Below, piece after piece: positions 14,018-58,074 of a DNA stretch of 62,459 bases. The notes under the pieces were generated by a model that had not been told where the DNA came from, did no database searches, and worked only from the letters and a program-made list of their open reading frames with translations. The position numbers and the translations under genes were made by a program. Position 1 is the first letter of the stretch; each line of letters opens with the position of its first letter. The stretch comes from a virus (lineage: Duplodnaviria > Caudoviricetes), in the IMG/VR virus record IMGVR_UViG_3300025864_000016, positions 1 through 62,459 of that record. One strand, written 5' to 3'.

Positions 14018-14737
14018 ATGAATGGAAGTATAGTCCATATTAACGATGGCGTCAAGTTTACAACAGGGAACATTCCCACTGGCATGAAGTTTGGTAGGAC
14101 TACCGTTATTGAAAAAATACCGAATCCTACCAAAGACAATCATGCATTTTATAGATGTGCCTGTGACTGCGGAAAGATTTATTGTACCGTTGGCAGAGGA
14201 TTGGTCAGTGGCCACACCACATCATGCGGGTGTTATTTTTCCGAACAACTTATAGCGCGCAATACTATACACGGTGAAGGTAGCCAAAAACACGCAAATC
14301 GTGGTTTGTATTGTGTATGGAATAACATGATGAAACGTTGTTACAATACAAAAAATCCTGGGTACTATAATTGGGGCGGCAGAGGCATCACCGTTTGCGA
14401 TGAGTGGAAAGCTGATTATACAGTATTTAGAGACTGGGCATTTGCTAATGGATACAAAAAGCACCTTTCCCTCGACAGAAGAGACAATCTCCTCGGCTAT
14501 AGCCCATCTAATTGTTGGTGGGCAACATCAATACAACAGAATAGGAATACTCGGAAAAATGTCAATGTTACTGCTTTCGGAGAAACAAAATGTATCTCCG
14601 CATGGGTAGCTGACGATTGCTGTAGCGTTGGTCATACAGCAATAAGGAAGAGAATAAAGAAGGGATGGTCTCCCGAAGATGCGATAACAACACCAGCATA
14701 CGGGCGGCGGGCAACATTGACACATACCCCCGCATAG
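14018..14737 (+). CDS. HNH-like homing-endonuclease-family protein, copy 1
   Basis: CDCG, SCGC, RCYN, GGRGITVC.EW, LSLDRRDN..GY.PSNC.WAT, TAFGETK. Confidence 0.85.
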   Translation: MNGSIVHINDGVKFTTGNIPTGMKFGRTTVIEKIPNPTKDNHAFYRCACDCGKIYCTVGRGLVSGHTTSCGCYFSEQLIARNTIHGEGSQKHANRGLYCVWNNMMKRCYNTKNPGYYNWGGRGITVCDEWKADYTVFRDWAFANGYKKHLSLDRRDNLLGYSPSNCWWATSIQQNRNTRKNVNVTAFGETKCISAWVADDCCSVGHTAIRKRIKKGWSPEDAITTPAYGRRATLTHTPA

Positions 14738-14782
14738 TGTATTCTATCACCTAGCACCCTCCGTGATGCTACTTACACCTCC

Positions 14783-14818
14783 TGGCCAGCGGTGGCTATC
14801 CTTCCCTGCCGCTGGCCA
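14783..14818. terminator. Strong hairpin after HNH-like copy 1
   Basis: TGGCCAGCGGTGG...CTGCCGCTGGCCA. Confidence 0.55.
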
Positions 14819-14885
14819 CCTCTTTGCCTGTTGACGAAACGCTACGACTTCTCAATAACTTATAGCACTCTGTCTGAAACTCCCC

Positions 14886-14914
14886 TTGACAACGAAGCCT
14901 TGATCTGTTACACT
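14886..14914 (+). promoter_or_regulatory. sigma70-type promoter with no convincing downstream ORF
   Basis: TTGACA-17-TACACT with extended TG. Confidence 0.7.
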
Positions 14915-14920
14915 ATTTTT

Positions 14921-15197
14921 CAGTAGAAAATGAAAATGCAAGGCGCGCACACATTGCCTCGTTAACAAAGTGTACGCCACCTCCATCGGAGAAGTAATTG
15001 GCAATGGTGGGGGCAACGGAAACAGGATAATAGAATAGAGAAGAGCCTTCGTAAAGCGTTACTATTGAAATGAAATGGACGTATACGGGGGTTCTTTCGT
15101 TTAATATATATCTTACTTCGTAGTTTTGCCATTCTCCAACCTTCGCAGCTTGCCATACATGCGATTGTACCCCGCTAGAAGCCTCGTAGCGGGGTAC
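14921..15197 (+). ncRNA. Candidate rod-like non-coding RNA
   Basis: 13-bp helix 15041-15053/15084-15096 with G.U pairs on the + strand; outer pairing 14988-15004/15126-15137; closing hairpin 15167-15197. Confidence 0.45.
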
Positions 15198-15229
15198 GGA
15201 TTGATTATTAGAGGTATTGCACGTCGGGG

Positions 15230-16561: not shown

Positions 16562-16884
16562 GAGTCCCCCCTCATTCGCTCCTCGGCCTGCGCCAAGTTG
16601 TACAGTGCGTCCACGTGTCCAAATGCGATCATTACAGCTTCAACGCGCAATGCCTGCCGAAAGTGAAAGGCACGGTCTTTCTGGTATTCCTCGCACTCTC
16701 GCGTCTTCCCCACAAGTGCCGCCGTCAGCTCCGCCTGCGAGTCAAGCAGCAGCTTTATCAGCTCCTGCTGGTCTTTGTCGTTGCAGGCATCGCATACGCC
16801 GGACTTGGAATCATGTGCCATTGACTGGCCGCAGACAGGACAGGCGCACTGCCAAGTGTCGTACTTTTGTTCTTCTTTATCCAC
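16558..16884 (-). CDS. Zn-ribbon / coiled-coil hypothetical protein
   Basis: CPVC...CDAC. Confidence 0.6.
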   Translation of the reverse strand: MDKEEQKYDTWQCACPVCGQSMAHDSKSGVCDACNDKDQQELIKLLLDSQAELTAALVGKTRECEEYQKDRAFHFRQALRVEAVMIAFGHVDALYNLAQAEERMRGDS

Positions 16885-17596
16885 AAATATTCCCTCCTCT
16901 TTTTTTCATATGTCTAGCAGGTTTTGTTATTGCTTCTTCGGGGGACATACCGCTTTTAAGCCTATCCCGCAAAGTGCCATAACTAACTACGCAGCGATAA
17001 TCACCTACCCATTCTGCTATACTTTTTGTTTCTCCAAATGCGGTCAGTAGGTGATTTCTTCGCGTATTCCTGGCTTGCTGTTTACGCGTCGCCCATCGAC
17101 AATTTGGCGGTTCGTAGTTACCGTCGTTATTTATGCGGTCTAATGTAAGGCTATCGGAATACCCGTGAGACAGCGCCCATTCTTTGAATGGAGGATATTC
17201 TCTCCATTCATTACAAACGGTAATTCCGCGACCACCATGATTGCAATAATCTTTTTTCTTTTCGTTGTAACAACGACCAAACATTCCCTGCCAGCAATCA
17301 AATAGCCTCGCGTATTCGCTGCTACGCACACTATCTCCGTGCGTAGTATGGCGTTTACTGGTCATTTCGGCACAATAGCATCCACATGACTTTATTCGTC
17401 CTCTAACTAAATGACTACCTAATACGCAACAAGTGTTTCCACAATCACAAGTAGCGACATAGTAGTGCATTGTCTGACCATTGACCTTTTTAATCACGTG
17501 TGAAGTCACCACCAACCTGTCAAATCTCATTCCCGCTGGTATGTTTGGAACAGTAAAATTAACGCCGTCTCTTTCGTGGACTATACTTTTACTCAT
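16877..17596 (-). CDS. HNH-like protein, copy 2
   Basis: Same motif set (LTLDRINNDGNYEPPNCRWAT); translationally coupled at the 5' end and overlapping the next gene. Confidence 0.85.
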   Translation of the reverse strand: MSKSIVHERDGVNFTVPNIPAGMRFDRLVVTSHVIKKVNGQTMHYYVATCDCGNTCCVLGSHLVRGRIKSCGCYCAEMTSKRHTTHGDSVRSSEYARLFDCWQGMFGRCYNEKKKDYCNHGGRGITVCNEWREYPPFKEWALSHGYSDSLTLDRINNDGNYEPPNCRWATRKQQARNTRRNHLLTAFGETKSIAEWVGDYRCVVSYGTLRDRLKSGMSPEEAITKPARHMKKRGGNICG

Positions 17597-17793: not shown

Positions 17794-18257
17794 CTTCCCT
17801 CCTCATGAGCAATCGGGGCGAGTAGTGGTCTTATCACTTCGCACTTGGCGTTCTAAATTCTCGCTCCGATTACAATGGTATTCTAGCAGATTTAGCTTGA
17901 CTTGTCAAGCGTATTGGTTCGCGGGTAAAAGGGATAGACTCGCTCGTCCTGCTGGCACGGCAAACGCTTCATCGCCACTTCCCACTCGCCCTTGCACGAA
18001 CCCTCAAGCTCATTCCTCTTCGCCACCAATGCCTGCAATGCCTTAAACGCACTATCTATCTGGGCATCAGGGGAGGGCGGTGGTGAACCACAAACTCGTG
18101 GTTCACCAAATATTGCTGCCAACAGAATACGCAGTCGTCTGGGCAATGCGCATCACCCTTCGCCATCCCTATCGGACACCCTCCTATCTCCTCCACCGGC
18201 TGGTGTGCAACAATACGCCGGACGCACTGCGTGAACGCATTTAGCAGGTGTTCATAT

Positions 18258-20220: not shown

Positions 20221-20922
20221 TTAACTACCTCCTTTGGTTTTGCTACGCTGGCTAGGTTTAGTTATTGCCAGTTCTGCTTCCATACCGCTTTTTAGTCTGT
20301 GCCATAAAGCCATATAGCCAACAACACACCGACTATCATCCGCCCATTCCGCGAGGCACTTGGTTTCACCAAAGGCAGTAATGAGGAGATTATCTCGCCT
20401 GTTTCTGTTCTGCTCTTTGTACGTTGCGAATCGACAGTTCGATGGCTCATAATCCCCGCTTTCGTTGTTGGGGTAACGGTCTAATGTAAGGTGCTTCTCG
20501 TATCCATTTGCAAGTGCCCATTCTTTGAACGGTGGGTACGTTCGCCACTCGTTGCATACAGTGATTCCCCTGCCGCCATGAGTGTCGTAGCCGGTGGCCT
20601 TTTCGTTGTAACAACGGCTCATCATACTTACCCAGCAATCAAATAATCTATTGTATGCACTACCTATCCTACTATCGCCGTGTGTAGTATTGCACGCTTT
20701 GACTACTTCACGCCGATAGCACCCACACGAAGTAGAAGCGCCACTAACTAAGCTACAACTAAGCACACGGCGTGTGTTTCCGCAATCACAGATGACAACG
20801 TAGTAATGCATTTTTTGTCCTTTGATTGTTTCTACCTCATGCTCTACGACCGCCCACCTGCCGAATTTACTCCCGGCAGGAATATCGCACCCACGTGGCT
20901 TGACGATTTCTTTCTTACTCAT
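20221..20922 (-). CDS. HNH-like protein, copy 3
   Basis: LTLDRYPNNESGDYEPSNCRFAT. Confidence 0.85.
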   Translation of the reverse strand: MSKKEIVKPRGCDIPAGSKFGRWAVVEHEVETIKGQKMHYYVVICDCGNTRRVLSCSLVSGASTSCGCYRREVVKACNTTHGDSRIGSAYNRLFDCWVSMMSRCYNEKATGYDTHGGRGITVCNEWRTYPPFKEWALANGYEKHLTLDRYPNNESGDYEPSNCRFATYKEQNRNRRDNLLITAFGETKCLAEWADDSRCVVGYMALWHRLKSGMEAELAITKPSQRSKTKGGS

Positions 20923-20944: not shown

Positions 20945-20973
20945 ATTCTATTCCGATTCAGGCATCGTGTCAA
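20945..20973 (-). promoter_or_regulatory. sigma70 promoter of HNH-like copy 3 (no hairpin leader)
   Basis: TTGACA-17-TAGAAT on the minus strand. Confidence 0.65.
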
Positions 20974-43599: not shown

Positions 43600-43602
43600 A
43601 AA

Positions 43603-43690
43603 TTGACAATCCAACACATCCGTGTTATTGTCTAGCCAGCATAGGCCCGCCACCTCTGACATAAGTGCAAATAGCGGGTCTCTTTCTTTT
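43603..43690 (+). promoter_or_regulatory. Promoter plus terminator-like hairpin in the MTase leader
   Basis: TTGACA-17-TATTGT; GGCCCGC...GCGGGTC followed by TCTTTCTTTT. Confidence 0.55.
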
Positions 43691-43741
43691 CAATCGCGCC
43701 ACAGACACGCCAAACGCGCCAACTTTCTGAGGGGGAAGCGC

Positions 43742-44479: not shown

Positions 44480-44488
44480 GGGGACACT

Positions 44489-44800: not shown

Positions 44801-44846
44801 CAAACTTCACCTCCTGATTTATTATTAGCGAAAGGGGGAAGAATTT

Positions 44847-45224: not shown

Positions 45225-45308
45225 GCCAGTATGTGCTATAATAAAATAGAAATGCCCCAGACATCGCGAAATGCCGGGGCGGTATGCAACCTGTAAAGGA
45301 GGAAGCAC
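45214..45308 (+). promoter_or_regulatory. Promoter and conserved hairpin leader of HNH-like copy 5
   Basis: TGcTATAAT 45234-45242; GCCCC...GGGGC 45254-45280; GGTATGCAACC; AGGAGG. Confidence 0.8.
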
Positions 45309-45995: not shown

Positions 45996-46020
45996 CTAAT
46001 TGCTCTATCATAAAAACCGA

Positions 46021-46051
46021 AAGACTCTCCTGTAAAGGGGGAGTCTTTTTT
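46021..46051 (+). terminator. Cassette terminator
   Basis: AAGACTCTCC...GGGGAGTCTT followed by a T run. Confidence 0.85.
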
Positions 46052-46070
46052 ATACCGCAAAGGTGGCGCG

Positions 46071-47495
46071 ATGCTAAAAAACGTACCAAAGGGAACGCGA
46101 TCCGCCTTCGATGTATGCGTGGCAGATCTGATCAATGACCTCATCATGGAACCCGATAAGGGTTTAGAGCGATACAGGAATGACCCCGTCGGATTCGTGC
46201 GCGAAGTGCTAAATGAAGACCCGTGGGAGAAGCAAGAGGAAGTGTTAGAAGCCGTTAGGGACAATCGACGCGTGACGGTCAGAAGTTGTCACGGGGTGGG
46301 CAAGACAAAATGCGCTTCGTGGGTTGCTTTGTGGTTCTTACTAACACACCCCGATAGCTGCGTGATCAGTACTGCACCGACGTGGCAACAGGTTGAGCAA
46401 CTTTTGTGGAGAGAGATTAGGAATAGTCATGCAAAAAGTAAAATCCCCTTGCCTGGGCAACCATTAACAACAAAGTACGAAATCAATGATAAATGGTTCG
46501 CTTTGGGGCTATCAACAGACAAACCTGAGCGTTTCCAGGGTTTCCATTCTTCCAGTGGAGACATTCTCCTAATCTGCGACGAGGCATCAGGTATTGACCA
46601 AGCCATATATGACGCGGCAGAAGGGTTTCTCGCGAGTGCTGGTGCAAGAATATTGTTAATAGGAAACCCCACACAGATGTCGGGCGAATTTTATTCGAGT
46701 TTTAAAACGTCTATCTATCACAAAATTCATATTTCTGCCTTTGATTCCCCTAATCTTACTCATGGGCAGGTTGTCAGAAAGTACCTCATTACCAAGGAAT
46801 GGGTTGATGAGAAGCGTGTCAAATGGACTGAAGAGTCACCGCTATGGTCGTCAAGGGTACTAGGGGACTTTCCAGAGCAATCAGAAGACACCCTCATACC
46901 TTTGGCGTGGATTGAAGCAGCCATAGCGCGTTACCCAAGTACGGAACGCTCAACCAACGCTCCTTTCCTCGGTTGTGACATAGCCCGGTTTGGTTCAGAC
47001 AGTACCGTTATCTGGTCAGTTTGGGGCAATCGCGCTGAATTGTACGCGCAGATTCGCAAGCAGGACACAATGGAAGTGGCCGGTGCAATCACTAATGCCA
47101 TCAAAGAGACAAGTGCCGCATATGCGAATGTTGACGTGTGCGGGCTTGGGGCTGGTGTTTATGACCGGCTCAAGGAAATGAATCAGCCTGCCATTGACTT
47201 GAACGCGGCGGGCAAGCCTGTTGACACTGAGCGGTTCGTGAATAATAGGGCCGAGTGGTATTGGAACCTGCGAGAGCGCTTCCAATCGGGTGACATTGCA
47301 ATTCCCGACAACGAAGAGCTGGCCGCGCAACTCACTGGCCTAAAGTACAAATTTGATTCACGCGGTAGATACCTCATCGAGAGTAAAGAAGAGATGAAAA
47401 AGCGTGGGATGTCCTCACCCGACCTTGCAGATGCGCTGATGTTGGCGTTCGCTCAGCAGCGTCCCCCGCAAGAAATTGGCGCAATGCTAGTTTAA
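46071..47495 (+). CDS. terL: Terminase large subunit
   Basis: Walker A SCHGVGKT, Walker B LLICDEAS, GNP, nuclease motifs GCDIA and SPDLADA. Confidence 0.95.
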   Translation: MLKNVPKGTRSAFDVCVADLINDLIMEPDKGLERYRNDPVGFVREVLNEDPWEKQEEVLEAVRDNRRVTVRSCHGVGKTKCASWVALWFLLTHPDSCVISTAPTWQQVEQLLWREIRNSHAKSKIPLPGQPLTTKYEINDKWFALGLSTDKPERFQGFHSSSGDILLICDEASGIDQAIYDAAEGFLASAGARILLIGNPTQMSGEFYSSFKTSIYHKIHISAFDSPNLTHGQVVRKYLITKEWVDEKRVKWTEESPLWSSRVLGDFPEQSEDTLIPLAWIEAAIARYPSTERSTNAPFLGCDIARFGSDSTVIWSVWGNRAELYAQIRKQDTMEVAGAITNAIKETSAAYANVDVCGLGAGVYDRLKEMNQPAIDLNAAGKPVDTERFVNNRAEWYWNLRERFQSGDIAIPDNEELAAQLTGLKYKFDSRGRYLIESKEEMKKRGMSSPDLADALMLAFAQQRPPQEIGAMLV

Positions 47496-47506
47496 CGGAG
47501 AAACAT

Positions 47507-48877
47507 ATGCAGAAATTAACACTTGGCCAGAGGGTGAAGCAATTCCTCTTTGGCGCTACGCCGTCTCCGTTCAGCGCTTTGTGCAACGTCGGAGACCCGC
47601 TTTGGAAGACTACTGACTACATCACGGCCTCGCGTGAGGCGTACATGGCGAACTGGGTAGTGCTGTCGTGCATTCAGAAGAAAGCCGCGCCCGTGGCCGC
47701 TGTTCCTTGGTACTGTTATACACCTGAGCAGGGCGATAACGGTAAATGGTTAGAGAAGCGCGTGTCCGTTCCAGAAATTGAGGATATGTTCCTCTTTGTG
47801 AATGATAATGATAGCTGGTTGCAGTTTATAACCGCTACCATTGCCAGTCTCGACCTTGGGGGCAAGGCGTACTGGCGCAGTATTGAACCAAAACAAGAAC
47901 TTGAGTGCCTTTACGTGCATGAAACCACGCCGCGTTTTGATGATGGTCAGCGTGCGATAATTGGATACGAACACACAAGCAGTTATGGGGGTGTGCCGAC
48001 GTTCCTAAGTGCAGAAGAAGTGCGCTACATTCGCAACTGGCACCCGTTGGACAAATGGGGTGGGTTAGCCGCAATTCAAGCCGCCGCCAAGCATGTAGAT
48101 ATTGCTAATGCTGGTGCTGGCTGGAATCTAGCGTTACTGCAAAACTCCGCCCGGCCAGGTGGTATTCTCTCAACAGACGCTACCCCTACACCCGAACAAC
48201 GTGAAGACGTGTTAAAAGCAGTTGAGGCCCGTTCTGGCGCAGCCAATCAAGGCAAAAGCCTGTTTGTGTGGGGTGGTATTAAATATGACCGCGATACCAT
48301 GACTCCTACCGATATGGCGTGGGGTGAGCTGGACGTTCGTGCAGCCTTGGCTATATGCAATGTCCTAGGTGTCCCTGCGCAAAAACTGAATATTCCCGGT
48401 TCGGAACAGTACGCGAATAAGGAACAGAGCGAAGAGAGCTTTGTTACTGATAGTATATTGCCTGTTTTGACTAGGGTTCAAAGACACTTGCAGCATTGGC
48501 AAATTCCCAAGATGCTTGCTAAGCCAATGATGAGTCATTATCCGCCAAACTTACGGATAGCATTTGACACAGAAGCTATCAGCGCGTTGCAGGAAGATAG
48601 AGACGCACTTTACGCCCGCACTATCGAGGCCGTAGACAAGGGAATTATCACCCTTCAGCAGGCTTGTGACACACTCGGCTACGATTGGGATGAGATTGGC
48701 ACCCGCCTTGTGGACGGCGACCGCCAAACACTCGAAACTGTGCTGAATGAAGTCTCGCAACCAGACAAAACAGGGGCAAGCCGCGTTGTGGTAGCCCCCG
48801 GAAGTGTTCCCGATAATAATAAGCCAGCAGTAGCAGAGGAGGCAACTAATGCCACAGCAAACAATACTCAAAAATAG
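47507..48877 (+). CDS. Portal protein (HK97-like)
   Basis: GKAYW, HPLD.WGGL, QNSARPGGIL, AICNVLGVP, YANKEQ. Confidence 0.92.
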   Translation: MQKLTLGQRVKQFLFGATPSPFSALCNVGDPLWKTTDYITASREAYMANWVVLSCIQKKAAPVAAVPWYCYTPEQGDNGKWLEKRVSVPEIEDMFLFVNDNDSWLQFITATIASLDLGGKAYWRSIEPKQELECLYVHETTPRFDDGQRAIIGYEHTSSYGGVPTFLSAEEVRYIRNWHPLDKWGGLAAIQAAAKHVDIANAGAGWNLALLQNSARPGGILSTDATPTPEQREDVLKAVEARSGAANQGKSLFVWGGIKYDRDTMTPTDMAWGELDVRAALAICNVLGVPAQKLNIPGSEQYANKEQSEESFVTDSILPVLTRVQRHLQHWQIPKMLAKPMMSHYPPNLRIAFDTEAISALQEDRDALYARTIEAVDKGIITLQQACDTLGYDWDEIGTRLVDGDRQTLETVLNEVSQPDKTGASRVVVAPGSVPDNNKPAVAEEATNATANNTQK

Positions 48878-50006
48878 GCATAACATTGTGACTGAGATTA
48901 GTTTGGGCGTGAGTGATTCCGAAGAGGGAATTATCACCGGAACAGCTCACGTCTGCGGAGTGCTGAACTCAACTAACCCTCCGATGGTGCTGCTGGCCGG
49001 TTCGTTTACAAAGACGATTAACGAAGGTGGGCAAAAGGTTCCCATTGAGATAGACCACGGTTCGGGCATTATGAAAGAGGTCGGCATAGGAGAGTTTTCC
49101 TATGATGGCAACGTTTTGACGCTCACTCGTGGTATGTTGAACATGGATTCTACCTATGTCCGTGAAGAGGTTTACCCGCGTTTGAAGCACCGCGCCGAAC
49201 ATGGCATGGCTACCGGCCTGTCCGTTGTTGTGGAGTTGCCGAAAGGTAAAGCCACATTCAAAGATGGGGCCTACCACGTAAGCGAAGTTATCCTCAAGAA
49301 AGTTGGCATTGTTGACGTACCTGCTAATGAGCCGTCCGTTATCACCACAGTTATGAGCGAAGAGAAACCTGATACTGAAGTAGCCGAAAATATCACGTTA
49401 GCGAAAACCTTTAACGATATTCTCAATGAGATTGAAGTACGTGAAGAAGAGCGAGACCTTGATAGTGAACGCTACAAACTCGACAGTGCTTTATCTTCAC
49501 TGATTTACCAGCTAACCGACGACGATACGCTCACCCCGATACAGGTTAAGGCCGCCGTGACACAGGGATTGAGCGACTACGCAACCGCAATGCTGACTTG
49601 GTTAGATGCATTACTCGCATTGAAGGCAACGGAGCCAGCAGAGAGCGACACAGAGGGGTCTAGCGGGGCACAGGAGGCCGAAGTCGAGTACGATGGCGCA
49701 ATGATGGGTCGTGGCGATAAAGCTCGTAACACGGCGGCAATGGCGGGGATTCATTCCCGTGTTGTCAAGTGCGCGTCTGAAATCCAAACCCACATGAAGA
49801 CACTTCGAGGAATGATGAACGACACCCCCGCAAAAATGGGGGCAACCACAGAAAATACTATAGATGAGCCGGAGCCGGAGACCACTGCTTTGTCGCAGCC
49901 GGAAACCACTACCACTCAGCAAGTAGATAACGTTTCAATGTCGGCAGAGTCTGCCGCATCTATCGCTGCAAATCTACAACGCAGCATAGATATTCTCACA
50001 AAGTAA
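48849..50006 (+). CDS. Prohead protease with long C-terminal extension
   Basis: GSFTKTI, IDH, GLSV, VDVPANE. Confidence 0.85.
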   Translation: MPQQTILKNRHNIVTEISLGVSDSEEGIITGTAHVCGVLNSTNPPMVLLAGSFTKTINEGGQKVPIEIDHGSGIMKEVGIGEFSYDGNVLTLTRGMLNMDSTYVREEVYPRLKHRAEHGMATGLSVVVELPKGKATFKDGAYHVSEVILKKVGIVDVPANEPSVITTVMSEEKPDTEVAENITLAKTFNDILNEIEVREEERDLDSERYKLDSALSSLIYQLTDDDTLTPIQVKAAVTQGLSDYATAMLTWLDALLALKATEPAESDTEGSSGAQEAEVEYDGAMMGRGDKARNTAAMAGIHSRVVKCASEIQTHMKTLRGMMNDTPAKMGATTENTIDEPEPETTALSQPETTTTQQVDNVSMSAESAASIAANLQRSIDILTK

Positions 50007-50019
50007 GAGGAGCAATTAA

Positions 50020-51177
50020 ATGGATGAATTAGTACAAAAGGTAGAGGAGCTTGCTGCTACTACCGCAGAGTTCAAGCGCACAAACGATGAGCGGCTTGCT
50101 ACCATCGAGGCTACGGGCAAAGAGTCTGTCATACAGACTGAAAAACTGGGGGCGATTGAGGCAGAATTGATTCGCCTTGAAGATTCTATCACTAAGCTGA
50201 ATCGCACATCCGCTGGCACTACCGCCGACGCGAAGGACGCGAAGACAGAAGCCTTTTTCGCTGGTATTCGCATGGGGTTGTCCCCGGATATGCCTTCCGA
50301 AATCAAGATGGGGATGACCGTAGCCAACGACACGACTGGTGGCTATCTGGCAAGCCCAGAGTACCTGTCCACAATCATGCGTAACATTAACGAGTACAGC
50401 GATGTGCGCGGCCTTGTTACCGTAAAGCCCACTACGAAAAAGGAAATCTCCTGGCCGACACGCACGCAGGGAACCGTGGCCCGGTTCGTCGGCGAGACTG
50501 AGCTCCGCACAGAGAGCCAGAACCCCCTGTATGGGCGCGATAAGATTCTCACTCGTGAGATGTATGCGATCATCGACGTGTCCAATGAAGACTTGGAAGA
50601 TAGCGATTATGACCTCGAAGGTATGATTCGCGACGAGATCACCGAGAGCTTCACCCTGCTGGAAGGCACGAGTGTTGTGTCCGGCACTGGTATAAACGGA
50701 GCGCCGTTCGGGTTCATGAATGCGGCTGGTATCGCTGAAGTCGTGTCTGGCGCTGCTACCACGATCCCTTCTGCCGACCCGCTTATTTCTTTGATGTACA
50801 ACATCAAAGACGTATATCAGCGCAATGGCGTTTGGGCTTTTAATCGCTCTACGTTGTCTGCTATCCGAAAACTGAAAGACGGGAATAACCAGTATCTGTG
50901 GGCACCGGGCATTGCTGGCGCAATCCCGAATACCATTCTTGACCGTCCGTATATCATTGTGCCGGATATGCCGAGCATTGGCGCTGGTCTGTACCCGGTC
51001 GTGTTCGGCGACCTCAAACGGGGTTACTGGCTAGTGGACCGCACTCAGCTCACCTTCACCCGCGACATCTATACACAGGCAACTTCTGGCTACGTTCGCA
51101 TCCTTGCCCGCAAGCGCATCGGTGGCAACGTGGTTCGCGCAGAGGCCTTTGCTAAACTGAAAATCGCCGCTTCCTAA
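50020..51177 (+). CDS. Major capsid protein (HK97 fold with delta domain)
   Basis: GGYL..PE, GTG...P.G, KLKDGNNQYLW, VVFGD, RIGG.V. Confidence 0.95.
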   Translation: MDELVQKVEELAATTAEFKRTNDERLATIEATGKESVIQTEKLGAIEAELIRLEDSITKLNRTSAGTTADAKDAKTEAFFAGIRMGLSPDMPSEIKMGMTVANDTTGGYLASPEYLSTIMRNINEYSDVRGLVTVKPTTKKEISWPTRTQGTVARFVGETELRTESQNPLYGRDKILTREMYAIIDVSNEDLEDSDYDLEGMIRDEITESFTLLEGTSVVSGTGINGAPFGFMNAAGIAEVVSGAATTIPSADPLISLMYNIKDVYQRNGVWAFNRSTLSAIRKLKDGNNQYLWAPGIAGAIPNTILDRPYIIVPDMPSIGAGLYPVVFGDLKRGYWLVDRTQLTFTRDIYTQATSGYVRILARKRIGGNVVRAEAFAKLKIAAS

Positions 51178-51189
51178 GGAGAGTAAATT

Positions 51190-51639
51190 ATGGCTAACGC
51201 AGGAACACTAATCGACATGAAGAATGTCGATGGCGTTAATATCCAAACAATACAGGATAGCGCCATTTATAATGTGGGCGGGGTTGACTACACGGGGGCG
51301 GCGATTGGTGCGATACTGGCTAATCAATTCCCCGCTGGCGTAACCGCCACCGCAGCGCAAATCAACAAGCTGGCCGCTGTTACCCCCGGTACGGTGGCCG
51401 CAAGCAAGGCGCTTGTCGTTGACGCACAGAAAACGCTCAACGAGCTTACCGTAACAGCACTGACCACGGGGGCTACCGTCACTATCGGGACAATCCCACT
51501 GGTGGCACTCACTGTGGCCGTAACCGCCAATTCCACTACCACGGCCCTCGCCGCAGGAACCTACGCCATTACCAGTAACGCTACTGGACTTGGCAAACTG
51601 TTCTATAGCGACGGTAGCAAGTGGCAGGTGGCCGCCTAG
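51190..51639 (+). CDS. Head fibre/decoration protein
   Basis: GVTATAAQINKL..VTPGT..ASKALVVD. Confidence 0.6.
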   Translation: MANAGTLIDMKNVDGVNIQTIQDSAIYNVGGVDYTGAAIGAILANQFPAGVTATAAQINKLAAVTPGTVAASKALVVDAQKTLNELTVTALTTGATVTIGTIPLVALTVAVTANSTTTALAAGTYAITSNATGLGKLFYSDGSKWQVAA

Positions 51640-51697
51640 TAATCAATACGGGGTGGGGGTAACTCCTCACCCCTTTCGTTCATAAGGAGAAAATAAC

Positions 51698-52135
51698 ATG
51701 CGTGATATTTATCACAACACAGGAGATACAATACTGCTGGAGCCGCAGGACTTGGCCCATACTAATACGTTGTCTGCAATAATTGACACCGTTGGTTTCG
51801 CAGGCGTTGACCTCAAGGTTATCGTTAGTGCGCTGACCGGCGTTGACGGCAGCAACTATCTGACCATTGTCGCTCAAGAGAGCGCCACTACCGCAACGGG
51901 CGCATTCACTACCGTCGCCGCTGGTGACCTACTGGGCGCGTTCACCGTCATTAACAGCACCAGCAAAGATAGCTTGGAGCAGAAAGTCGGATACATCGGC
52001 AACAAGCGGTACGTCCGCATTAGCCTGGTGTACACCGGCACGACTATCAGCGCCGGAGTTGTCGGCGTTATCGCCACCGTCGATAGTGCAAGTACGGCCC
52101 CGGTAACAGCACCAGCCATCACCGCCACCACGTAA
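51698..52135 (+). CDS. Capsid decoration/cement protein
   Basis: IDT.GF, QES, VGYIGNKRYVR. Confidence 0.7.
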   Translation: MRDIYHNTGDTILLEPQDLAHTNTLSAIIDTVGFAGVDLKVIVSALTGVDGSNYLTIVAQESATTATGAFTTVAAGDLLGAFTVINSTSKDSLEQKVGYIGNKRYVRISLVYTGTTISAGVVGVIATVDSASTAPVTAPAITATT

Positions 52136-52190
52136 GGCGAACAGGCAATCCCCGCGTGGTTATGCTGCGCGGGGAGATTAAGGGGGTAAT

Positions 52191-52781
52191 ATGAAACTTA
52201 CGCGAATCAGTGATAGCAGCGTAGAACCTGTGTCCTCCGCGCTAGTAAAGGCCCATCTCGTAGACGTTAATTCAAGCGACGACACACTATTAGCCATGTA
52301 TATCCGGCGGGCAAGAATGGCGCTGGAAGTTTTGTCCCGTTCAGCATTATGCGTGGGAACTGACACTCAAACATGGAAAGCCGTGTTTACATATCAAGAA
52401 TGGTTGGACGCGCAGGACGTCGATGGCACGATCACGCTCGGTTACGGCCCGATGAGTGCAGTAACAAGCATCATAGAAAGACGCAAATCAGCCACTACCA
52501 CAACCGTCAGCACTGATGTATATACCACTGACCCTTCCACAAATAGGATTCTTTTGAAAGATGATCAACTGTGGCCTGATATATCTGGTACGCATACAGA
52601 CTGCCTAGGATTTACAATCACATATACGGCAGTTAATACTGCACTACCGGATTGGGCCGCTGACGGGGTGTGTCGCCTTTGTGGTTATCTTTTTGAGCGT
52701 AGGGGTGATAGTGAGCCTGATAATATATTTGCTGTTGCGGGCCAGCTTGTTCCTGACGCTATTTCGTATGATGATTATTGA
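52191..52781 (+). CDS. Head-tail adaptor (gp6-like)
   Basis: EPVS...VKAHL.D...DD.LL..YI..AR; L..YLFERR. Confidence 0.85.
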   Translation: MKLTRISDSSVEPVSSALVKAHLVDVNSSDDTLLAMYIRRARMALEVLSRSALCVGTDTQTWKAVFTYQEWLDAQDVDGTITLGYGPMSAVTSIIERRKSATTTTVSTDVYTTDPSTNRILLKDDQLWPDISGTHTDCLGFTITYTAVNTALPDWAADGVCRLCGYLFERRGDSEPDNIFAVAGQLVPDAISYDDY

Positions 52782-52876
52782 CAAAACCAGGCGCAACATG
52801 TTATACTACCAAAAGTAATTACCCCGCACAAAATCTGATTGTACGGGGCGTATGAAATACCGATAGGAGGTATTGC
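52778..52876 (+). promoter_or_regulatory. Promoter and conserved hairpin leader of HNH-like copy 6
   Basis: TTGACA-18-TATACT; stem 52822-52848; GTATGAAATACC; AGGAGG. Confidence 0.85.
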
Positions 52877-53575
52877 ATGAGAACTAGTATACAGCGATTC
52901 AAAGATGGCGTCAATTACACGCTAGGCACTATGCCTGCCGGCATGAGATGGGGTAGGGGCACAGTTCAGAACCGTACACCTAGCCCATTTGGCGATCGCA
53001 AACCACGATATTCTTTACTGTGCGATTGTGGAAATATTTATATCGCATTTGGGCGTGATATTGTAAGTGGTCACACAAAATCTTGCGGGTGTTATAAGCA
53101 GGCAATGATTAAAGTCTGGTCGACAAAGCATGGATATAGCTTACCTACTAGTGAATATTATAGGTTGTATAAGTGCTGGATACACATGATTAGCCGCTGT
53201 TACGATATGAATGATTCTGGTTACAACGCTCATGGAGGACGCGGCATCACTGTTTGCAATGAGTGGCGAGATAATCCAGAAGTATTTCAAAGGTGGGCTA
53301 TAAGTAACGGATATTCTGACACCCTAACTCTCGACCGTTACCCTAACAACGACGGCAATTACGAACCTTCAAACTGCCGGTGGGCGACACGTAAGCAGCA
53401 GAATAGAAACACTCGGTCTAATCGCCTTATTATGGCATTTGGCGAGACGAAGTGTATTTCTGCATGGGTAGAAGATTCCCGCTGCGTTGTTTCCTATGCA
53501 ACTTTATGGTACAGACTAAAGAGTGGAATGGATACCGAAGACGCGATGACAAAACCTTCCCGGCGTAGCAAGTAA
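52877..53575 (+). CDS. HNH-like protein, copy 6
   Basis: LTLDRYPNNDGNYEPSNCRWAT. Confidence 0.85.
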   Translation: MRTSIQRFKDGVNYTLGTMPAGMRWGRGTVQNRTPSPFGDRKPRYSLLCDCGNIYIAFGRDIVSGHTKSCGCYKQAMIKVWSTKHGYSLPTSEYYRLYKCWIHMISRCYDMNDSGYNAHGGRGITVCNEWRDNPEVFQRWAISNGYSDTLTLDRYPNNDGNYEPSNCRWATRKQQNRNTRSNRLIMAFGETKCISAWVEDSRCVVSYATLWYRLKSGMDTEDAMTKPSRRSK

Positions 53576-53593
53576 CTACTTCACGATGTAAAA

Positions 53594-53626
53594 AAGAACT
53601 CTCAAATGAATCGGGGGTTCTTTTTT
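53594..53626 (+). terminator. Cassette terminator
   Basis: AAGAACTCTC...GGGGGTTCTT followed by a T run. Confidence 0.8.
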
Positions 53627-53651
53627 GTGCCATCTTTCGAGGATGTGACTT

Positions 53652-54365
53652 ATGGCTTATACACCAATATCATCGGCACAATGCCGCTATACAGCTACCA
53701 TACTCACCCCGACGCTTATTACTAGCCCGGCGACTACCGGACAGGTTACGTGGGGCAACCTCGGCTCAACGCCGACTTGCAGAGTTGCGGTAGCGTGGCC
53801 GTCACTCGCGAGCTTAAATCATATAACCAACGCCGATAACGGAAGTGTTGCCACACTCACAACAAGAAAACGGGCAGACGTTATCGTAGGCCACATGATT
53901 CAAGTGGTCATGGACGCCGTGACCAGAACCTTTGACATTATGGCGATAGTTCCACACCGCGCCGCTGGCTGGATGGAAATAACCGGCAGGGAAGTTACCC
54001 GGCCTTCAATTATGTACACAATGACCGTGCAAAGACAGACCATCGGGAATAGTGCTTTCGGTGACGGCATGGGGGGATTTACTTCCGCATCAGGCACAAG
54101 TGGGTACGCTACTACAGGGGTAACGCTAACAGGAATTCTCAACAGTATCGACGCCACAATCAGATACACGCCCGCAGTTAATGGGCAACTAATCTCGCAC
54201 GAATTTCACATACCTTATCGCAATGACTATAACACTGTTATCACCGCTGCTGACCGGCTGGTCATAGGCACCCGCAGCTTTTATATCGTTGGGATTGATG
54301 ATATGAATGAGCATCACACCGAGATATGCGTCTATCTTAACGAGTTGAAGCAAGCAGGTCAGTGA
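53652..54365 (+). CDS. Head closure (stopper) protein with two tandem gp16-like domains
   Basis: Position in the neck cluster; two repeats of the pattern T.Q....G...W/Y ... R.D..I/V....RT/SF.I..I....E. Confidence 0.7.
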   Translation: MAYTPISSAQCRYTATILTPTLITSPATTGQVTWGNLGSTPTCRVAVAWPSLASLNHITNADNGSVATLTTRKRADVIVGHMIQVVMDAVTRTFDIMAIVPHRAAGWMEITGREVTRPSIMYTMTVQRQTIGNSAFGDGMGGFTSASGTSGYATTGVTLTGILNSIDATIRYTPAVNGQLISHEFHIPYRNDYNTVITAADRLVIGTRSFYIVGIDDMNEHHTEICVYLNELKQAGQ

Positions 54366-54366
54366 T

Positions 54367-54843
54367 ATGCGAGTAATTGGCGTTGACAAACTATCTGGCT
54401 ACTTCGCGAAGAAGCAAGCCGCTATCGAAGAAAAGGTAAAAGAAGCATTGATGCTGCGGGCAAAGGTTATACAGGACAAGGCAAAGTACCTTGCAGCTCC
54501 GCCGCCTAAAGTTTGGAGATTCACTCGCTTACCAACCGGGGGCAGGAGTCGTACCGGACAACCAAATACGCCGGTTCCTTCAACTTCCGATAGCATTGCT
54601 GATATGATAGAGATTATCCCATTAAATGGCGGGCTTACCATTCGCATTGTCAGCAGGCACTGGGTAAGTCTTTGGTTTGAGTTTGGCACGGGTGATACGG
54701 CAAGCACCGGCCCATTTCCGAATCCTCCGCATAATAGGTCATTCAATCGCGGCATGTACGCTTCACCGTTTATGGTTCCTGCGCTAGAAACCTCGCGAAT
54801 GGGCACAATACGGGCGGTTAAAGCCGCACTAGGGGGTAAGTAA
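54367..54843 (+). CDS. HK97 gp10-like neck protein
   Basis: AKYLA, WFEFGT, GMYASPFMVPALE. Confidence 0.85.
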   Translation: MRVIGVDKLSGYFAKKQAAIEEKVKEALMLRAKVIQDKAKYLAAPPPKVWRFTRLPTGGRSRTGQPNTPVPSTSDSIADMIEIIPLNGGLTIRIVSRHWVSLWFEFGTGDTASTGPFPNPPHNRSFNRGMYASPFMVPALETSRMGTIRAVKAALGGK

Positions 54844-55292
54844 TGCCAACAGAAACCGGATTCAGTATTCCGTTTGCTGCAATACAAGCTGGGATTTACA
54901 CGAAACTCAATGCCGCCGTGACTTATGGCGGAGTCGCCGTTCCCGTGTTGAGCAGTCCGCCAATGGAGTTTACGCCAAGGCGCATCGAAATTGGCGAAGA
55001 CACCGCAGATGCCTTCTGGGGCAAGGATTTCAAGGGCTGGTACACGACGACGACTATTCATGTCTGGGACAGCGGTGGTAGCCGCGCACCCGTGTTAAGT
55101 ATCATGGATTCTGTGTCGAAACTACTCACAAAATTCAGTAGCCCAATTTCACTGGGCACGGGATTTTACAACATCGCAACTTTTCCCGGAGCAACGCTTT
55201 GTATCCGCGACAGTTTCGACGAAGTCCTCAAGCTACCCGTATATCACGGAGTTTTGAGACTTAAGCTATATATTCAGCAGGCTACGGCCTAG
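54843..55292 (+). CDS. Tail terminator (DUF3168-like)
   Basis: AIQAGIYTKL, IGED, TIHVW, YHGVLR. Confidence 0.8.
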   Translation: MPTETGFSIPFAAIQAGIYTKLNAAVTYGGVAVPVLSSPPMEFTPRRIEIGEDTADAFWGKDFKGWYTTTTIHVWDSGGSRAPVLSIMDSVSKLLTKFSSPISLGTGFYNIATFPGATLCIRDSFDEVLKLPVYHGVLRLKLYIQQATA

Positions 55293-55310
55293 CACTAAAG
55301 GAGAAAGAAA

Positions 55311-56159
55311 ATGCCAACACCAACACTTGTTGCCGGCAAAAACCTAAACATTGGGCCGCAGACTGCGGGCGTAGTAACGCCATTAAAGTTTTCGCGCGGC
55401 GGTGATATATCTATCACCGGGACTACCTTTGATGGCGCTCACAAGGGCGACCCATCAACCCCGAACTTCGTCGGCTATACCGAATGGAACGCCGCCGTTA
55501 GTGGAGTATTAGACGATACAGCCGCAGAGGTGTCGGGCATCAAATGCACACTCACCCGTGCAGGCGGACTCGTTTTCTGCGGCGACGTCTCCATTGACAT
55601 TAATATGGGGTTCGCCAGTGCGAAGGTTCACGACCTGTATCCCAATACGGTTTTCGCTCCGACGCAGTATACGTGGAGTGCAACAGCAAATACCTTTTGG
55701 ACTTCTGACGGCACCCCTTCAGAACTGACCGCCGAATTGTTGGCGGCATTGGAAGGCACTGATTTCCCCGCCGATGATGGCATAGAGGTGGTTTTCACCA
55801 TTGGTTCTGCCATAACACTGACAGGCAACGGGAAAATTCATTCGTCTAAAACTTCTGGCGGGCACACCGACTTCGTGAAGAACGACTTCTCTATCATCGG
55901 AGATGGCGTGCTTACTCCGGTTATTACTGGAGCTTCACAGTTAGTGGCCGTTCTGACACCATTACTCGCGGGCACAGTTATTGCTATTGGGGTAAACGTT
56001 GGCGGGACAGGGTCTCCACTTACGGGCGGGAATGTCCTGGTTGGCAACAGCTACGGCAAGTCTGTCAAGATCAGTGCTCCAGTCGATGGCATCGCTACCT
56101 TCGACATCGCACTTCAGGGAACTGGGGCACTTGGCCCGTATGTCCCAGTAATACCGTAA
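55311..56159 (+). CDS. Major tail tube protein (internally duplicated)
   Basis: Position; tube-type motifs W.A...G and A..D...TF...LQGTGAL. Confidence 0.8.
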   Translation: MPTPTLVAGKNLNIGPQTAGVVTPLKFSRGGDISITGTTFDGAHKGDPSTPNFVGYTEWNAAVSGVLDDTAAEVSGIKCTLTRAGGLVFCGDVSIDINMGFASAKVHDLYPNTVFAPTQYTWSATANTFWTSDGTPSELTAELLAALEGTDFPADDGIEVVFTIGSAITLTGNGKIHSSKTSGGHTDFVKNDFSIIGDGVLTPVITGASQLVAVLTPLLAGTVIAIGVNVGGTGSPLTGGNVLVGNSYGKSVKISAPVDGIATFDIALQGTGALGPYVPVIP

Positions 56160-56242
56160 TTGTGTGGTAAGTAACCACACAAGCACTGGTGGGGACAATT
56201 CAGTCCCCACCCTACATTTCAGTTTTATAAGGGGGAAATTAG

Positions 56243-56782
56243 ATGGCTAACATAGGCAAAAGAGCAAAGCCAACACTCGCGCCGGTGGCTCCGGTAGAAG
56301 TTCCGCAAGCCGACGTATTCACCACGAATGGTGACGTAGAAGTTTACGTTCCCGGGATGGAACGCACGGGGTACTTCCAGTTAAACGCACGCTCAATCAG
56401 CAACCTCCAGCGCAAGTTTGGTAAGTCGATCAAGGATTTATACGCTGACATTGCGATGAAGGCAGAGGGCGACATTCTTTCTGCTGTCCTTGTGGAAGGC
56501 TTTAACGCCCCGATTGAGCGTGACAAATACAACGCAAGCAAGGGCAGGCCGGGGCCGCTGGCTGACGAAGAGTTATGGACAGAGGACGACGTTCTCTACA
56601 ACATCAATACCAACAACATTGGCTACTTGAGTGAACAGCTCGTGACCGGATTTGGAAAGGCATTCGGGGTGGATATCCCCCAAATATTGCGCCTGCTCTC
56701 CACATTAACGGAGGCGGGCAAGGAGATGGAGACAGCGATGGCGGCGTCTGGAGCAGTACTAGCTGGTATCGACAATATTTAG
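56243..56782 (+). CDS. Tail assembly chaperone
   Basis: Lies between tube and TMP; FQLN..I..LQRKFGK. Confidence 0.7.
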   Translation: MANIGKRAKPTLAPVAPVEVPQADVFTTNGDVEVYVPGMERTGYFQLNARSISNLQRKFGKSIKDLYADIAMKAEGDILSAVLVEGFNAPIERDKYNASKGRPGPLADEELWTEDDVLYNINTNNIGYLSEQLVTGFGKAFGVDIPQILRLLSTLTEAGKEMETAMAASGAVLAGIDNI

Positions 56783-57321
56783 TTGCGGGTGGCGACCCCG
56801 ACATTGAAGCCTTCGGGTTCCTAATTCCATGGGAGATATCCGAGTTTGTTGGGGCGTATAGCCTGCGAAAGAATGAGGCGATACTGCTCGAAGATGAGCG
56901 ATTCGCTAGGAGCCTGTGGTACACGTTAAACTGTGGAACTATGGGCATCAGTGAGAAGAGTAGCTGGCTGAAAGTCGAAGACCTGCGCATGTTCAACCGC
57001 GATGGCGACAAGCAGGAAATTGACGAGAAGAAAGTTGCCAAGCCTAAACGCCTGACCCGCAAACAGAAGATAGCGGCAGAGCGTGCGAGACGCAAACAAT
57101 GGGCATCCTTTGCTGTTTCAATACCTTCATTAGCAGAAACACAATCGCGCCTGTACGAAATATCGCAACTGCCGAACACTGACGTTTCCTGCTATGAGAC
57201 ATGGACAGAGTTGAACAAAGAGCGACTGGCAAAAGCGAAACTTAGTGACGCACAACGACTAAAGGCGTTGATAGACGATAAGACCCGCTTGCACAACAAT
57301 CCAGTTTGTGGTATACTATGA
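56635..57321 (+). CDS. Chaperone -1 frameshift extension (GT-like)
   Basis: The -1 frame is open from 56635 to 57321 and overlaps the chaperone; no strong RBS. Confidence 0.6.
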   Translation, partial: TARDRIWKGIRGGYPPNIAPALHINGGGQGDGDSDGGVWSSTSWYRQYLVAGGDPDIEAFGFLIPWEISEFVGAYSLRKNEAILLEDERFARSLWYTLNCGTMGISEKSSWLKVEDLRMFNRDGDKQEIDEKKVAKPKRLTRKQKIAAERARRKQWASFAVSIPSLAETQSRLYEISQLPNTDVSCYETWTELNKERLAKAKLSDAQRLKALIDDKTRLHNNPVCGIL

Positions 57322-57387
57322 ATAGAAAGTGCCCACCGCAAAGACTAATTGCGGTGGGCGTATGAAATACCTAGAAGGAGGTATCGC
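57289..57387 (+). promoter_or_regulatory. Promoter and conserved hairpin leader of HNH-like copy 7
   Basis: TTGCAC-17-TATACT; 11-bp stem 57331-57359; GTATGAAATACC; AGGAGG. Confidence 0.85.
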
Positions 57388-58074
57388 ATGAGACCTAGTA
57401 TAGCACGAGTCAAAGACGGAGTCAACTACACGACGGACAACATGCCCGTAGGTATGGTTTGGAATTGGCTCACAGTCAAAGAGCATGAAGTAGAGAGAAT
57501 CAAGGGACATTTAAGGCATTTCTATATTTGCGTCTGCGAATGTGGAAACATTTGCCGCGTAGAAGGCAATAATTTAATCAGTGGCCATACCAAGTCATGC
57601 GGGTGTTATCGGCGCGAGGTAATTACTACGCACGGCGACCGTGTGGTGGGTAGCGAGTATTTTAGACTGCATCAGTGCTGGGCAGCTATGATGAATCGTT
57701 GCTACAACAAAAACAGTGACAGTTACCATACTCATGGCGGGCGCGGTATTACAGTTTGTGTGGCATGGAGAGATAGCTCGGTATTCAAGGAATGGTCTCT
57801 CGCTAATGGCTATTCGGATAAACTCACCCTTGATAGAGAAAATAACGAAAGTGGCAACTATGAACCATCCAACTGCAGGTGGGCTACAGCGAAGCAACAG
57901 GCGAGGAATCGACGGGATAATCACATGATTACTGCTTTCGGAGAAACCAAGTGTATCGCTGAATGGGCTGAAGACGTCCGCTGCGTTGTTGCTGCTGGCA
58001 CTTTGCGTATGAGACTAAAGCGCGGCATGGAACCCGAAGAAGCGATGACTAAATATAGCAGGCAGAGCAAATAG
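57388..58074 (+). CDS. HNH-like protein, copy 7
   Basis: LTLDRENNESGNYEPSNCRWAT. Confidence 0.85.
   Translation: MRPSIARVKDGVNYTTDNMPVGMVWNWLTVKEHEVERIKGHLRHFYICVCECGNICRVEGNNLISGHTKSCGCYRREVITTHGDRVVGSEYFRLHQCWAAMMNRCYNKNSDSYHTHGGRGITVCVAWRDSSVFKEWSLANGYSDKLTLDRENNESGNYEPSNCRWATAKQQARNRRDNHMITAFGETKCIAEWAEDVRCVVAAGTLRMRLKRGMEPEEAMTKYSRQSK

Follow-up and report, generated by a model that had tools for sequence, protein, structure and literature searches.

Multi-copy HNH genes have often been noted in phages and rarely explained. The virus genome in the IMG/VR record IMGVR_UViG_3300025864_000016 (Duplodnaviria; Caudoviricetes) carries seven free-standing genes for HNH-like proteins, here called c1 to c7 in the order of their positions, and is a compact system in which to study why one phage maintains seven related DNA-targeting proteins. 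Where did these genes come from, and how are they controlled and maintained? The window is the whole record of 62,459 bp, a whole virus genome rated 100% complete. A sequence-only reading of it had taken the genes for closely related paralogues that spread in this lineage by repeated copying rather than by independent invasions. Our explanation, to which as a whole we assign a probability of roughly 0.7, is that the seven genes descend from one ancestral free-standing cassette of homing-endonuclease type, which was copied long ago to intergenic sites.

Seven intact copies of one family

All seven genes predicted from the sequence are present and translate cleanly into intact proteins of 228-239 amino acids (aa). 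They are c1 (239 aa; 14018-14737, plus strand), c2 (239 aa; 16877-17596, minus), c3 (233 aa; 20221-20922, minus), c4 (229 aa; 28305-28994, minus), c5 (228 aa, with a TTG start; 45309-45995, plus), c6 (232 aa; 52877-53575, plus) and c7 (228 aa; 57388-58074, plus). For c4 the ATG at 28994 is the likelier start than the alternative TTG at 29000, because it lies 8 nucleotides (nt) after an AGGAGG and the TTG only 2 nt after it. A profile built from the seven copies found exactly seven matches in the whole record, with eight candidates scored. The seven open reading frames (ORFs) add up to ~4.9 kb, or ~7.9% of the 62,332 unique bases, in line with the share of about 8% given before. The motifs by which the copies had been recognized are also borne out: DGV(N/K)(F/Y)(T/S) is found in c1, c2, c5, c6 and c7, RGC.IP in c3 and c4, and TAF.ETK..W..D..C.V in all seven, with the variant MAFGETK in c6.

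Each copy lies between genes in the orientation of its neighbours, as had been described, and is a stand-alone ORF that is not within an intron or intein. c1 ends the plus-strand block, after a nucleoside 2-deoxyribosyltransferase-like gene. The three copies that had been placed in the early operon are c2-c4, which are indeed on the minus strand among replication and recombination genes; the start and stop of c2 overlap neighbouring ORFs. c5 is directly upstream of the large terminase gene, c6 is between the head-tail adaptor and head-closure genes, and c7 is between tail-chaperone-like ORFs and the tape measure gene. The copies have a G+C content of 43-48%, the genome one of 49.6%.

The copies thus form one family, as proposed, but they are not close to each other: protein identity is only 47-62% (46.8-58.9% in global alignments, up to 62% in local BLAST alignments), DNA identity is 54-63%, and synonymous sites are saturated.

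The seven copies form one clade

We searched for relatives of the copies with a profile and with two single sequences (c7, and c1 as the most divergent copy) in a collection of 5.8 billion proteins, with a profile in 1.84 billion representatives, and by scans of IMG/VR and of one genome per GTDB species. From 446 fetched proteins we cut 357 full-length family segments. Among these, each copy has the other six as its six best BLAST matches. For outside proteins the identity over most of the length is ~51% at best, with a few partial matches at 52-54% (the 54% over 66% of the query), and matches in named phages are all below 60% identity, the best at 44.6%. c2-c7 score 207-271 bits among themselves and no more than 194 bits against outsiders. 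In 159 further loci from IMG/VR and GTDB genomes, the matches had at most 181 bits and 47% identity, compared with 186-271 bits between copies.

A FastTree phylogeny of the 357 segments recovered the seven as one group, with a support of 98 for c2-c7. For a more careful IQ-TREE analysis we used 69 rows, consisting of the seven copies, their 44 nearest outsiders (8 per copy, 14 for c1) and 18 random segments, the other 288 rows being omitted. The seven copies formed a clade with an ultrafast bootstrap (UFBoot) support of 100 and a Shimodaira-Hasegawa-like approximate likelihood ratio (SH-aLRT) of 97, and the clade was present in 200 of 200 bootstrap trees, the bootstrap correlation being 0.975 and not fully converged. 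The model was site-heterogeneous, and a quick IQ-TREE run also gave one clade (SH-aLRT 96). The stem of the clade is 0.32 changes per column. Two results weigh against the inclusion of c1: it is only marginally nearer to its paralogues (186-214 bits) than to outsiders (up to 186 bits), and the FastTree support for joining it to c2-c7 is only 28. Hence, in a tree that includes their best database matches, the copies are monophyletic rather than polyphyletic with nearest relatives in unrelated phages. The single clade, the mutual best matches and the shared flanks described below support an expansion from a single origin, and the copying is ancient, not recent.

The order of branching inside the clade is (c1,(c5,(c2,(c7,(c6,(c3,c4)))))), with c1 as the earliest-branching copy. 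The inner branches of the careful tree are very short (0.05-0.07) and the tips long (0.29-0.88), which suggests an old, nearly simultaneous radiation to the seven sites. Long ago, copies of an ancestral cassette would have reached new intergenic sites within this phage lineage, a route of copying that we infer.

The copies diverged and appear to be maintained

NG86 estimates of synonymous divergence (dS) between the copies were 1.5-3.7 or, in 11 of the 21 pairs, not computable. Nonsynonymous divergence (dN) was 0.32-0.50, and dN/dS was at most ~0.33 where it could be computed. All seven frames are open, and each copy keeps the residues that are nearly invariant in the family, an arginine (356 of 357 segments), the first asparagine of the motif (357 of 357) and the last asparagine (343 of 357). 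By these measures the seven copies are intact, under purifying selection and not decaying, and their maintenance argues against a simple cycle of gain, decay and loss for this family. With dS saturated, we used the mean identity of each domain in place of dN/dS by domain. It was 0.47 for the N-terminal barrel, 0.60 for the core and 0.57 for the C-terminal module; the greater divergence of the N-terminal domain would fit different DNA targets and a diverging DNA specificity.

The 5' ends of c5 (45315-45348) and c7 (57397-57430) are alike in 33 of 34 nt, which take in both an exact run of 27 nt and the promoter spacer, despite an overall identity of only 63% between the two genes. This could be a small gene-conversion tract or reflect an extra constraint at the DNA level.

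Five copies share an upstream control cassette

Five of the copies, c1, c4, c5, c6 and c7, have ~95 nt of upstream sequence in common. The cassette consists of an extended -10 element (TGnTATAMT) with a weak -35 element, a GC-rich hairpin of ~11 bp (hairpin 1), a second hairpin (hairpin 2) and the ORF. Hairpin 2 pairs the AGGAGG Shine-Dalgarno (SD) sequence and the start codon. In c1, the sense promoter TGTACA-17-TATAAT with an upstream TG and the leader occupy 13922-14017 (plus strand), with hairpin 1 at 13961-13986 followed by the hairpin that sequesters SD and AUG. The corresponding elements of c4 are the extended -10 TGGTATACT (29070-29062) and the leader (28995-29070, minus strand; hairpin 1 at 29024-29052). 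On the plus strand, promoter and leader are TATACA-17-TATAAT with TG for c5 (45214-45308; hairpin 1 at 45254-45280), TTGACA-18-TATACT with TG for c6 (52778-52876; hairpin 1 at 52821-52849) and TGCACA-16-TATACT with TG for c7 (57290-57387; hairpin 1 at 57331-57359). The likeness among the cassettes ends just upstream of the -35 position.

Single-sequence folds predict both hairpins in each of the five leaders; RNAalifold on a MAFFT alignment of the five leaders returned no consensus structure, the arms being misaligned. The arms of hairpin 1 differ between the copies, yet each copy still has the 11-bp stem. With nhmmer, a leader profile found only the five leaders in the genome (E-values 2e-20 to 8e-27) and had no match in 169 fetched loci (1.245 Mb), among them 80 IMG/VR loci around family members (L002-L081). 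A strict DNA pattern of the cassette architecture had 8 matches in IMG/VR, none encoding a member of the family. Since the five cassettes are paralogues, the motifs that they share cannot be counted as independent events.

Intrinsic terminators on the plus strand follow c5 (46026-46050), c6 (53595-53626) and c7 (58096-58128), those of c6 and c7 resembling each other. All three sit in the row of late structural genes, directly before the large terminase, head-closure and tape-measure genes, and late transcription must read through them or restart after them.

The other two copies lack the cassette. Translational coupling ties c2 into the minus-strand operon, and c3 has its own promoter, TTGACA-17-TAGAAT (20945-20973, minus strand), with no structured leader, the bare promoter noticed before. 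Leader-like structures upstream of c2 and c3 were considered and rejected (z-scores -2.2 to -0.3). The same TTGACA-17-TAGAAT sequence is found at a second place in the minus-strand block, at 17880-17908 (minus strand), where it precedes a 66-aa ORF that is translationally coupled to c2; the site at 20945-20973 directly precedes c3.

On the tree, c2 and c3 are enclosed by copies that have the cassette, c1 and c4-c7; the cassette form would therefore be ancestral and would have been lost twice, independently in c2 and c3, where these became embedded in the operon; this assumes that the root lies outside the clade. The ancestral cassette would have carried its own control region, made up of a host-type extended -10 promoter, the GC-rich hairpin, the SD/AUG-pairing hairpin and the terminator. 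Judged by the shared flanks, the copied unit is a gene cassette with self-contained control and not the ORF alone. A history of this kind would be readable in one genome, from the ancestral cassette through the radiation to seven sites without decay to the twofold loss of the control region.

A predicted antisense promoter inside the five cassette genes

On the opposite strand of codons 4-14, c1, c4, c5, c6 and c7 all have the promoter-like sequence TTGAC(G/T)-17-TATA(C/A)T in the same position. In c1, this sigma-70-like site is TTGACG-17-TATACT (14027-14055, minus strand, inside codons 4-13). It is TTGACG-17-TATAAT in c4 (28960-28988, plus), TTGACT-17-TATACT with TG in both c5 (45315-45343, minus) and c7 (57397-57425, minus), and TTGACG-17-TATACT in c6 (52886-52914, minus). 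c2 has a weaker promoter-like site, TTAACG-17-TATACT (17559-17587, plus), with 9 of 12 consensus matches, and c3, which is without five N-terminal codons of the other copies, has no antisense -10 element. The N-terminal motif that the sequence-only reading had called idiosyncratic is an extension specific to the clade, and it holds this promoter-like site.

The five sites could be part of a negative control. The antisense promoter would be stronger than the sense promoter, and its transcript would begin near the start codon, pass back across the entire leader and end at hairpin 1. The product would be an antisense RNA of 65-70 nt with a 5' stem-loop that contains an anti-SD sequence, covering essentially the whole 5' untranslated region (UTR) of the sense mRNA, and it would hold down translation of a potentially harmful DNA-cutting protein. 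On the antisense strand, hairpin 1 forms an unbroken 11-bp stem (with one bulged base in c4 and c5) and is followed by a U-rich stretch in the five cassettes.

A comparable arrangement is known from IS10 RNA-OUT and P22 sar. In these systems the 5' end of the gene contains a stronger, inward-facing promoter that produces a short antisense RNA complementary to the ribosome-binding site (RBS) and start codon of the mobile element's own enzyme, with proven control of the transposase or antirepressor. In contrast, the antisense RNA described here is predicted from sequence, and it has no sequence relationship to either. We put the existence of the predicted 65-70-nt RNA at somewhat below an even chance. 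Tentative, too, and slightly less probable, is the wider interpretation that each cassette is a self-limiting selfish element with a brake like that of IS10 RNA-OUT, inherited through at least five rounds of copying, and that the N-terminal extension would exist largely to encode the antisense promoter. If true, the antisense RNA would clearly exemplify antisense control as an integral part of a cassette of homing-endonuclease type, and the N-terminal sequence of a protein would have been shaped by a promoter on the other strand.

An explanation that we place at even odds does without an antisense RNA. According to it, the hexamers in codons 4-14 arise incidentally from conserved N-terminal residues and from AT-rich codons near the start, hairpin 1 is a 5' stem-loop that stabilizes the sense mRNA, and hairpin 2 limits translation. 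The promoter-like site does overlap conserved residues in the five copies, where the hexamers encode the conserved S-I and G-V-(N/K), and residues 7-14 form a small beta-hairpin in the AlphaFold2 model, so that constraint on the protein may explain part of the pattern. However, c4 keeps both hexamers and the 17-nt spacing with other residues, I-I and V-V-K in place of S-I and G-V-N. The Ser-Ile pair, in turn, is encoded exclusively by AGT-ATA (5/5 and 6/6), which forms the opposite-strand -10 element, out of six Ser and three Ile codons and with other synonymous sites saturated; of 118 conserved degenerate columns only 8 use a single codon, and the AGT and ATA columns are among these 8. For the strict pattern TTGAC-N18-TATAMT, 0.08 occurrences would be expected in the genome and 7 are present, a count that none of 100 shuffles reached; five of the seven are the antisense sites in c1, c4, c5, c6 and c7. 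The other two, at 37672-37700 and 40801-40829 (both minus strand), head minus-strand gene blocks and are probably phage early promoters. A promoter-like site of at least 10/12 matches is found at that place in 5 of the 7 copies of this genome and in 2 of 75 outside family loci, whose members are without the N-terminal extension and motif; these 2 of 75 are no more than in control windows (3/77, 0/77 and 1/76). The RNA folds point both ways. In four of the five cassettes the leader interval folds more stably as antisense RNA, by 1.8 to 7.3 kcal/mol, because the G-U pairs on that strand are C-A mismatches on the sense strand, but c7 folds equally on both strands. The antisense U-rich tails after hairpin 1 are modest, and a simple terminator scan flags hairpin 1 as terminator-like on the minus strand only in c6 and c7, two of the five.

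The proteins resemble HNH nucleases

All seven copies match PHROG 374, annotated as 'HNH endonuclease', with E-values of 9.5e-49 to 3.7e-59 over profile positions ~198-400 of 617. The PHROG 374-type family is large, with 156,044 representative clusters at E ≤ 0.001 and 31,163 at 1e-30 in the library of 1.84 billion representatives. In named phages it was matched in 1141 of 50,697 records and at 1300 places in all, with hosts from Staphylococcus to Vibrio. A named phage genome usually has one copy, and the most is four among the 40 matches listed.

An AlphaFold2 model of c7 has a mean predicted local confidence (pLDDT) of 93.6. Its residues ~4-69 form a small beta-barrel of the Tudor/SH3/CarD-N type (Z about 5) that bears CxC...SCGC cysteines, and the N-terminal part would be a small barrel that holds a CxC...CxC zinc motif. 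For the core, residues 84-178, the best match is a weak one to PacI (3m7k/3ldy), an HNH restriction enzyme (Z 5.7, 80 residues aligned, root mean square deviation 3.4), and against BFVD the model finds many phage proteins labelled HNH or homing endonuclease, with E-values down to 3e-20. The only sequence match in the PDB is I-HmuI (1u3e), a weak profile match across the HNH motif (E 0.33). In this weak alignment, by which the motif positions are set, the residue before the arginine is Asp in 314 of 357 segments (Glu in 30), and this Asp and the last Asn are conserved at positions that we take to be metal ligands of I-HmuI. The core would resemble the beta-beta-alpha-metal nuclease fold of HNH enzymes, its catalytic His replaced by Arg. 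The C-terminal ~48 residues (TAFGETK...) are a module, presumably DNA-binding, that recurs in tandem in other family members, and several of the top family matches have the core plus tail duplicated. Two database proteins have long arrays of the module, P0124 (1537 aa) with 28 tandem matched stretches and P0125 (1202 aa) with 22.

Several results weigh against a nuclease. At the position of the general-base His, as set by the 'DH' of I-HmuI, there is an Arg in all seven copies and in 356 of the 357 segments, and cleavage activity is therefore unproven for the family as a whole. No Pfam HNH model matches any copy at E ≤ 1 (the only hit is an unrelated family below the cut-off), and no copy has an NCBIfam match at E ≤ 0.1. 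The Z of 5.7 with PacI is below the level that the structure-comparison tool calls distinctive, and a Foldseek search of the c7 model against the PDB gave nothing at E ≤ 0.001. The proteins also differ from I-HmuI and PacI in their flanking domains, with no significant Pfam or PDB sequence match. We conclude that the resemblance justifies the name 'HNH-like' but does not establish the proteins as members of the catalytic family; their nuclease or homing activity is predicted. With no Pfam model, 156,044 clusters and Arg for the catalytic His, the family merits biochemical characterization.

Comparison with known systems

Sets of HNH genes in several copies are already published for phages (PMC2248197, PMC7344957), and the earlier statement that free-standing HNH genes of phages are usually divergent from each other is too broad, since paralogous multi-copy sets with proposed duplication have been described (PMC2248197). 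The Xanthomonas oryzae phages Xop411, Xp10 and OP1 have 8, 7 and 6 free-standing HNN-AP2 endonuclease genes in ~44 kb, and spread by duplication or transposition in the genome was proposed for this set, in which no conserved flanks were found and several copies are decaying (PMC2248197). As in these phages, many paralogous free-standing HNH-type genes are found here across a siphophage genome, with a motif that deviates from H-N-H. However, the family is a different one, with no AP2 domain detected and Arg-N-N instead of H-N-N, five copies have a common promoter, leader and candidate antisense promoter, and all seven are intact.

Phage T4 has 15 homing endonuclease genes from several families (GIY-YIG, HNH), including seven free-standing ones without their own promoter, and the genes are described as regulated by RBS-sequestering hairpins, which a late promoter inside the hairpin bypasses (PMC2988022). 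Like T4 seg and mob, which are selfish nucleases in T4, the genes studied here are intergenic and co-oriented, with a hairpin predicted to sequester the RBS and limit translation. Unlike seg and mob, as that account presents them, they belong to one family and have their own host-type promoter upstream of both hairpins plus a putative convergent promoter.

Pectobacterium phage CB7 encodes 23 homing endonucleases, and its HNH ORFs take up ~7% of a 143-kb genome (PMC7344957), a share comparable to the one found here. CB7 is a myovirus with partly intron-borne HNH genes, and the part of that report on which we draw describes no common regulatory cassette. In cyanophage S-PM2, the antisense RNA CfrI of ~225 nt spans a homing endonuclease gene and psbA; according to the portion of the account used here, it was shown experimentally and its function is unknown (PMC2984593). 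Both are phage antisense transcripts overlapping a gene of homing-endonuclease type, but the RNA that we predict is only ~65-70 nt long, is confined to the 5' UTR and is repeated in five cassettes. Among the top-ranked matches examined in open-access full text, we found no description of a cis-antisense RNA built into free-standing HNH cassettes. What is new here is the conserved self-contained control cassette in five copies, the predicted antisense RNA and the maintenance of all seven copies.

Search for close relatives of the phage

A megablast search with the 5.1-kb terminase-to-capsid stretch (46071-51177) found no match in the 50,697 phage records. With tblastn against phages, the best match was 42% identical for the major capsid protein (a Rhizobium phage) and ~42% for the large terminase. 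A scan of IMG/VR with a peptide pattern of the major capsid protein found only one distant locus (30% identity). In a terminase scan of metagenome contigs, the best full-length match had 49% identity and one fragment had 55%; the 80 loci (738 kb) around distant terminase relatives contained no member of the HNH-like family.

Three peat-metagenome DNA runs (X1, X2 and X3) were compared with positions 43000-62459. X1 and X2, both possible sources, match exactly, and X3 has identical short contigs. The five joints listed in the runs skip 66-319 nt, and none skips a whole cassette in this interval; the loose ends of the 319-nt joint, which is inside c7, are read as the c1 paralogue mapping across. 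X1 and X2 also have low-depth divergent contigs beside the exact ones, for example at 50308-50485, 51444-51696 and 54572-54761, with 26 differences in 178 nt in one example and 28 differences and 3 gaps in 253 nt in another. A related phage present in the same peat samples may be their source.

Alternative explanations for the origin and function of the seven genes

The tree would look the same whether the genes were copied inside one genome or exchanged among unsampled sister phages, and it cannot tell the two apart. The copies might have been acquired singly, by homing or recombination, from co-infecting sister phages that carry a lineage-restricted subfamily with each member resident at its own locus, and the clade would then be the shared gene pool of an unsampled phage group; we regard such an origin, and this consequence with it, as unlikely. 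It would agree with the usual spread of free-standing endonuclease genes, which pass from one related genome to another at one and the same locus (PMC2988022), and with the I-HmuI-like genes of Skunavirus, reported to cluster by insertion site and to show marker exclusion (PMC12724721). The ancient divergence with saturated dS leaves ample time for exchange, and the low-depth contigs of 85-95% likeness in X1 and X2 indicate that kin may exist. However, the same ancestral ectopic copying would still be needed somewhere in the lineage, the shared leader, candidate antisense promoter and tree point to one ancestral cassette, and no such sister phage is visible in the collections searched. That no close relative was found counts against the main explanation too, for it is in such relatives that empty sites, presence/absence polymorphism or other direct signs of mobility would be seen.

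It is likewise improbable, in our estimation, that the proteins are not endonucleases at all. Their core, with Arg for His, would then have lost cleavage or never had it, and they would be sequence-specific DNA-binding proteins kept for the use of the phage, possibly as regulators, as accessory factors in packaging or replication, or to exclude competitors without cutting. This would explain the near-invariant Arg and the lack of a Pfam HNH match, and would suit the position of c5 directly before the large terminase gene as well as seven copies kept intact under purifying selection despite their great age, which is unlike the cycle of gain, decay and loss described for homing genes (PMC2248197). 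On the other hand, the Asp and Asn aligned with the I-HmuI motif are conserved, in 314 and 343 of the 357 segments, and the scattered distribution over 1141 phage records and many host genera is typical of selfish genes. Tight negative control, by the RBS hairpin and the predicted antisense RNA, would suit a harmful product, and the neighbours at the seven insertion sites are unrelated to each other.

Genome organization

The genome is of the siphovirus type. Late genes on the plus strand encode the large terminase, portal, major capsid, connector, major tail and tape measure proteins, and a minus-strand block encodes a DnaB-like helicase, a replication initiator and RecT/RecE-like proteins. 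The record has an exact terminal direct repeat of 127 bp (1-127 = 62333-62459). The tape-measure-like ORF exits at the right end (58111-62457) and resumes in an open frame at the left end (3-1430); since it spans both ends, the record was cut inside the tape measure gene.

Two paralogous DNA methyltransferase genes (PHROG 67) are present at 12512-13201 (E 3e-66) and 43622-44479 (E 6e-80), both on the plus strand and one in each plus-strand block. Directly upstream of the second is a single tRNA-Phe gene (GAA; 43523-43599, plus strand), the sole match of an Rfam scan. The minus-strand ORF at 39437-39838 contains 15-nt periodic direct repeats (39521-39684; families D5 and D10) and looks like a gene for a pentapeptide-type repeat protein.

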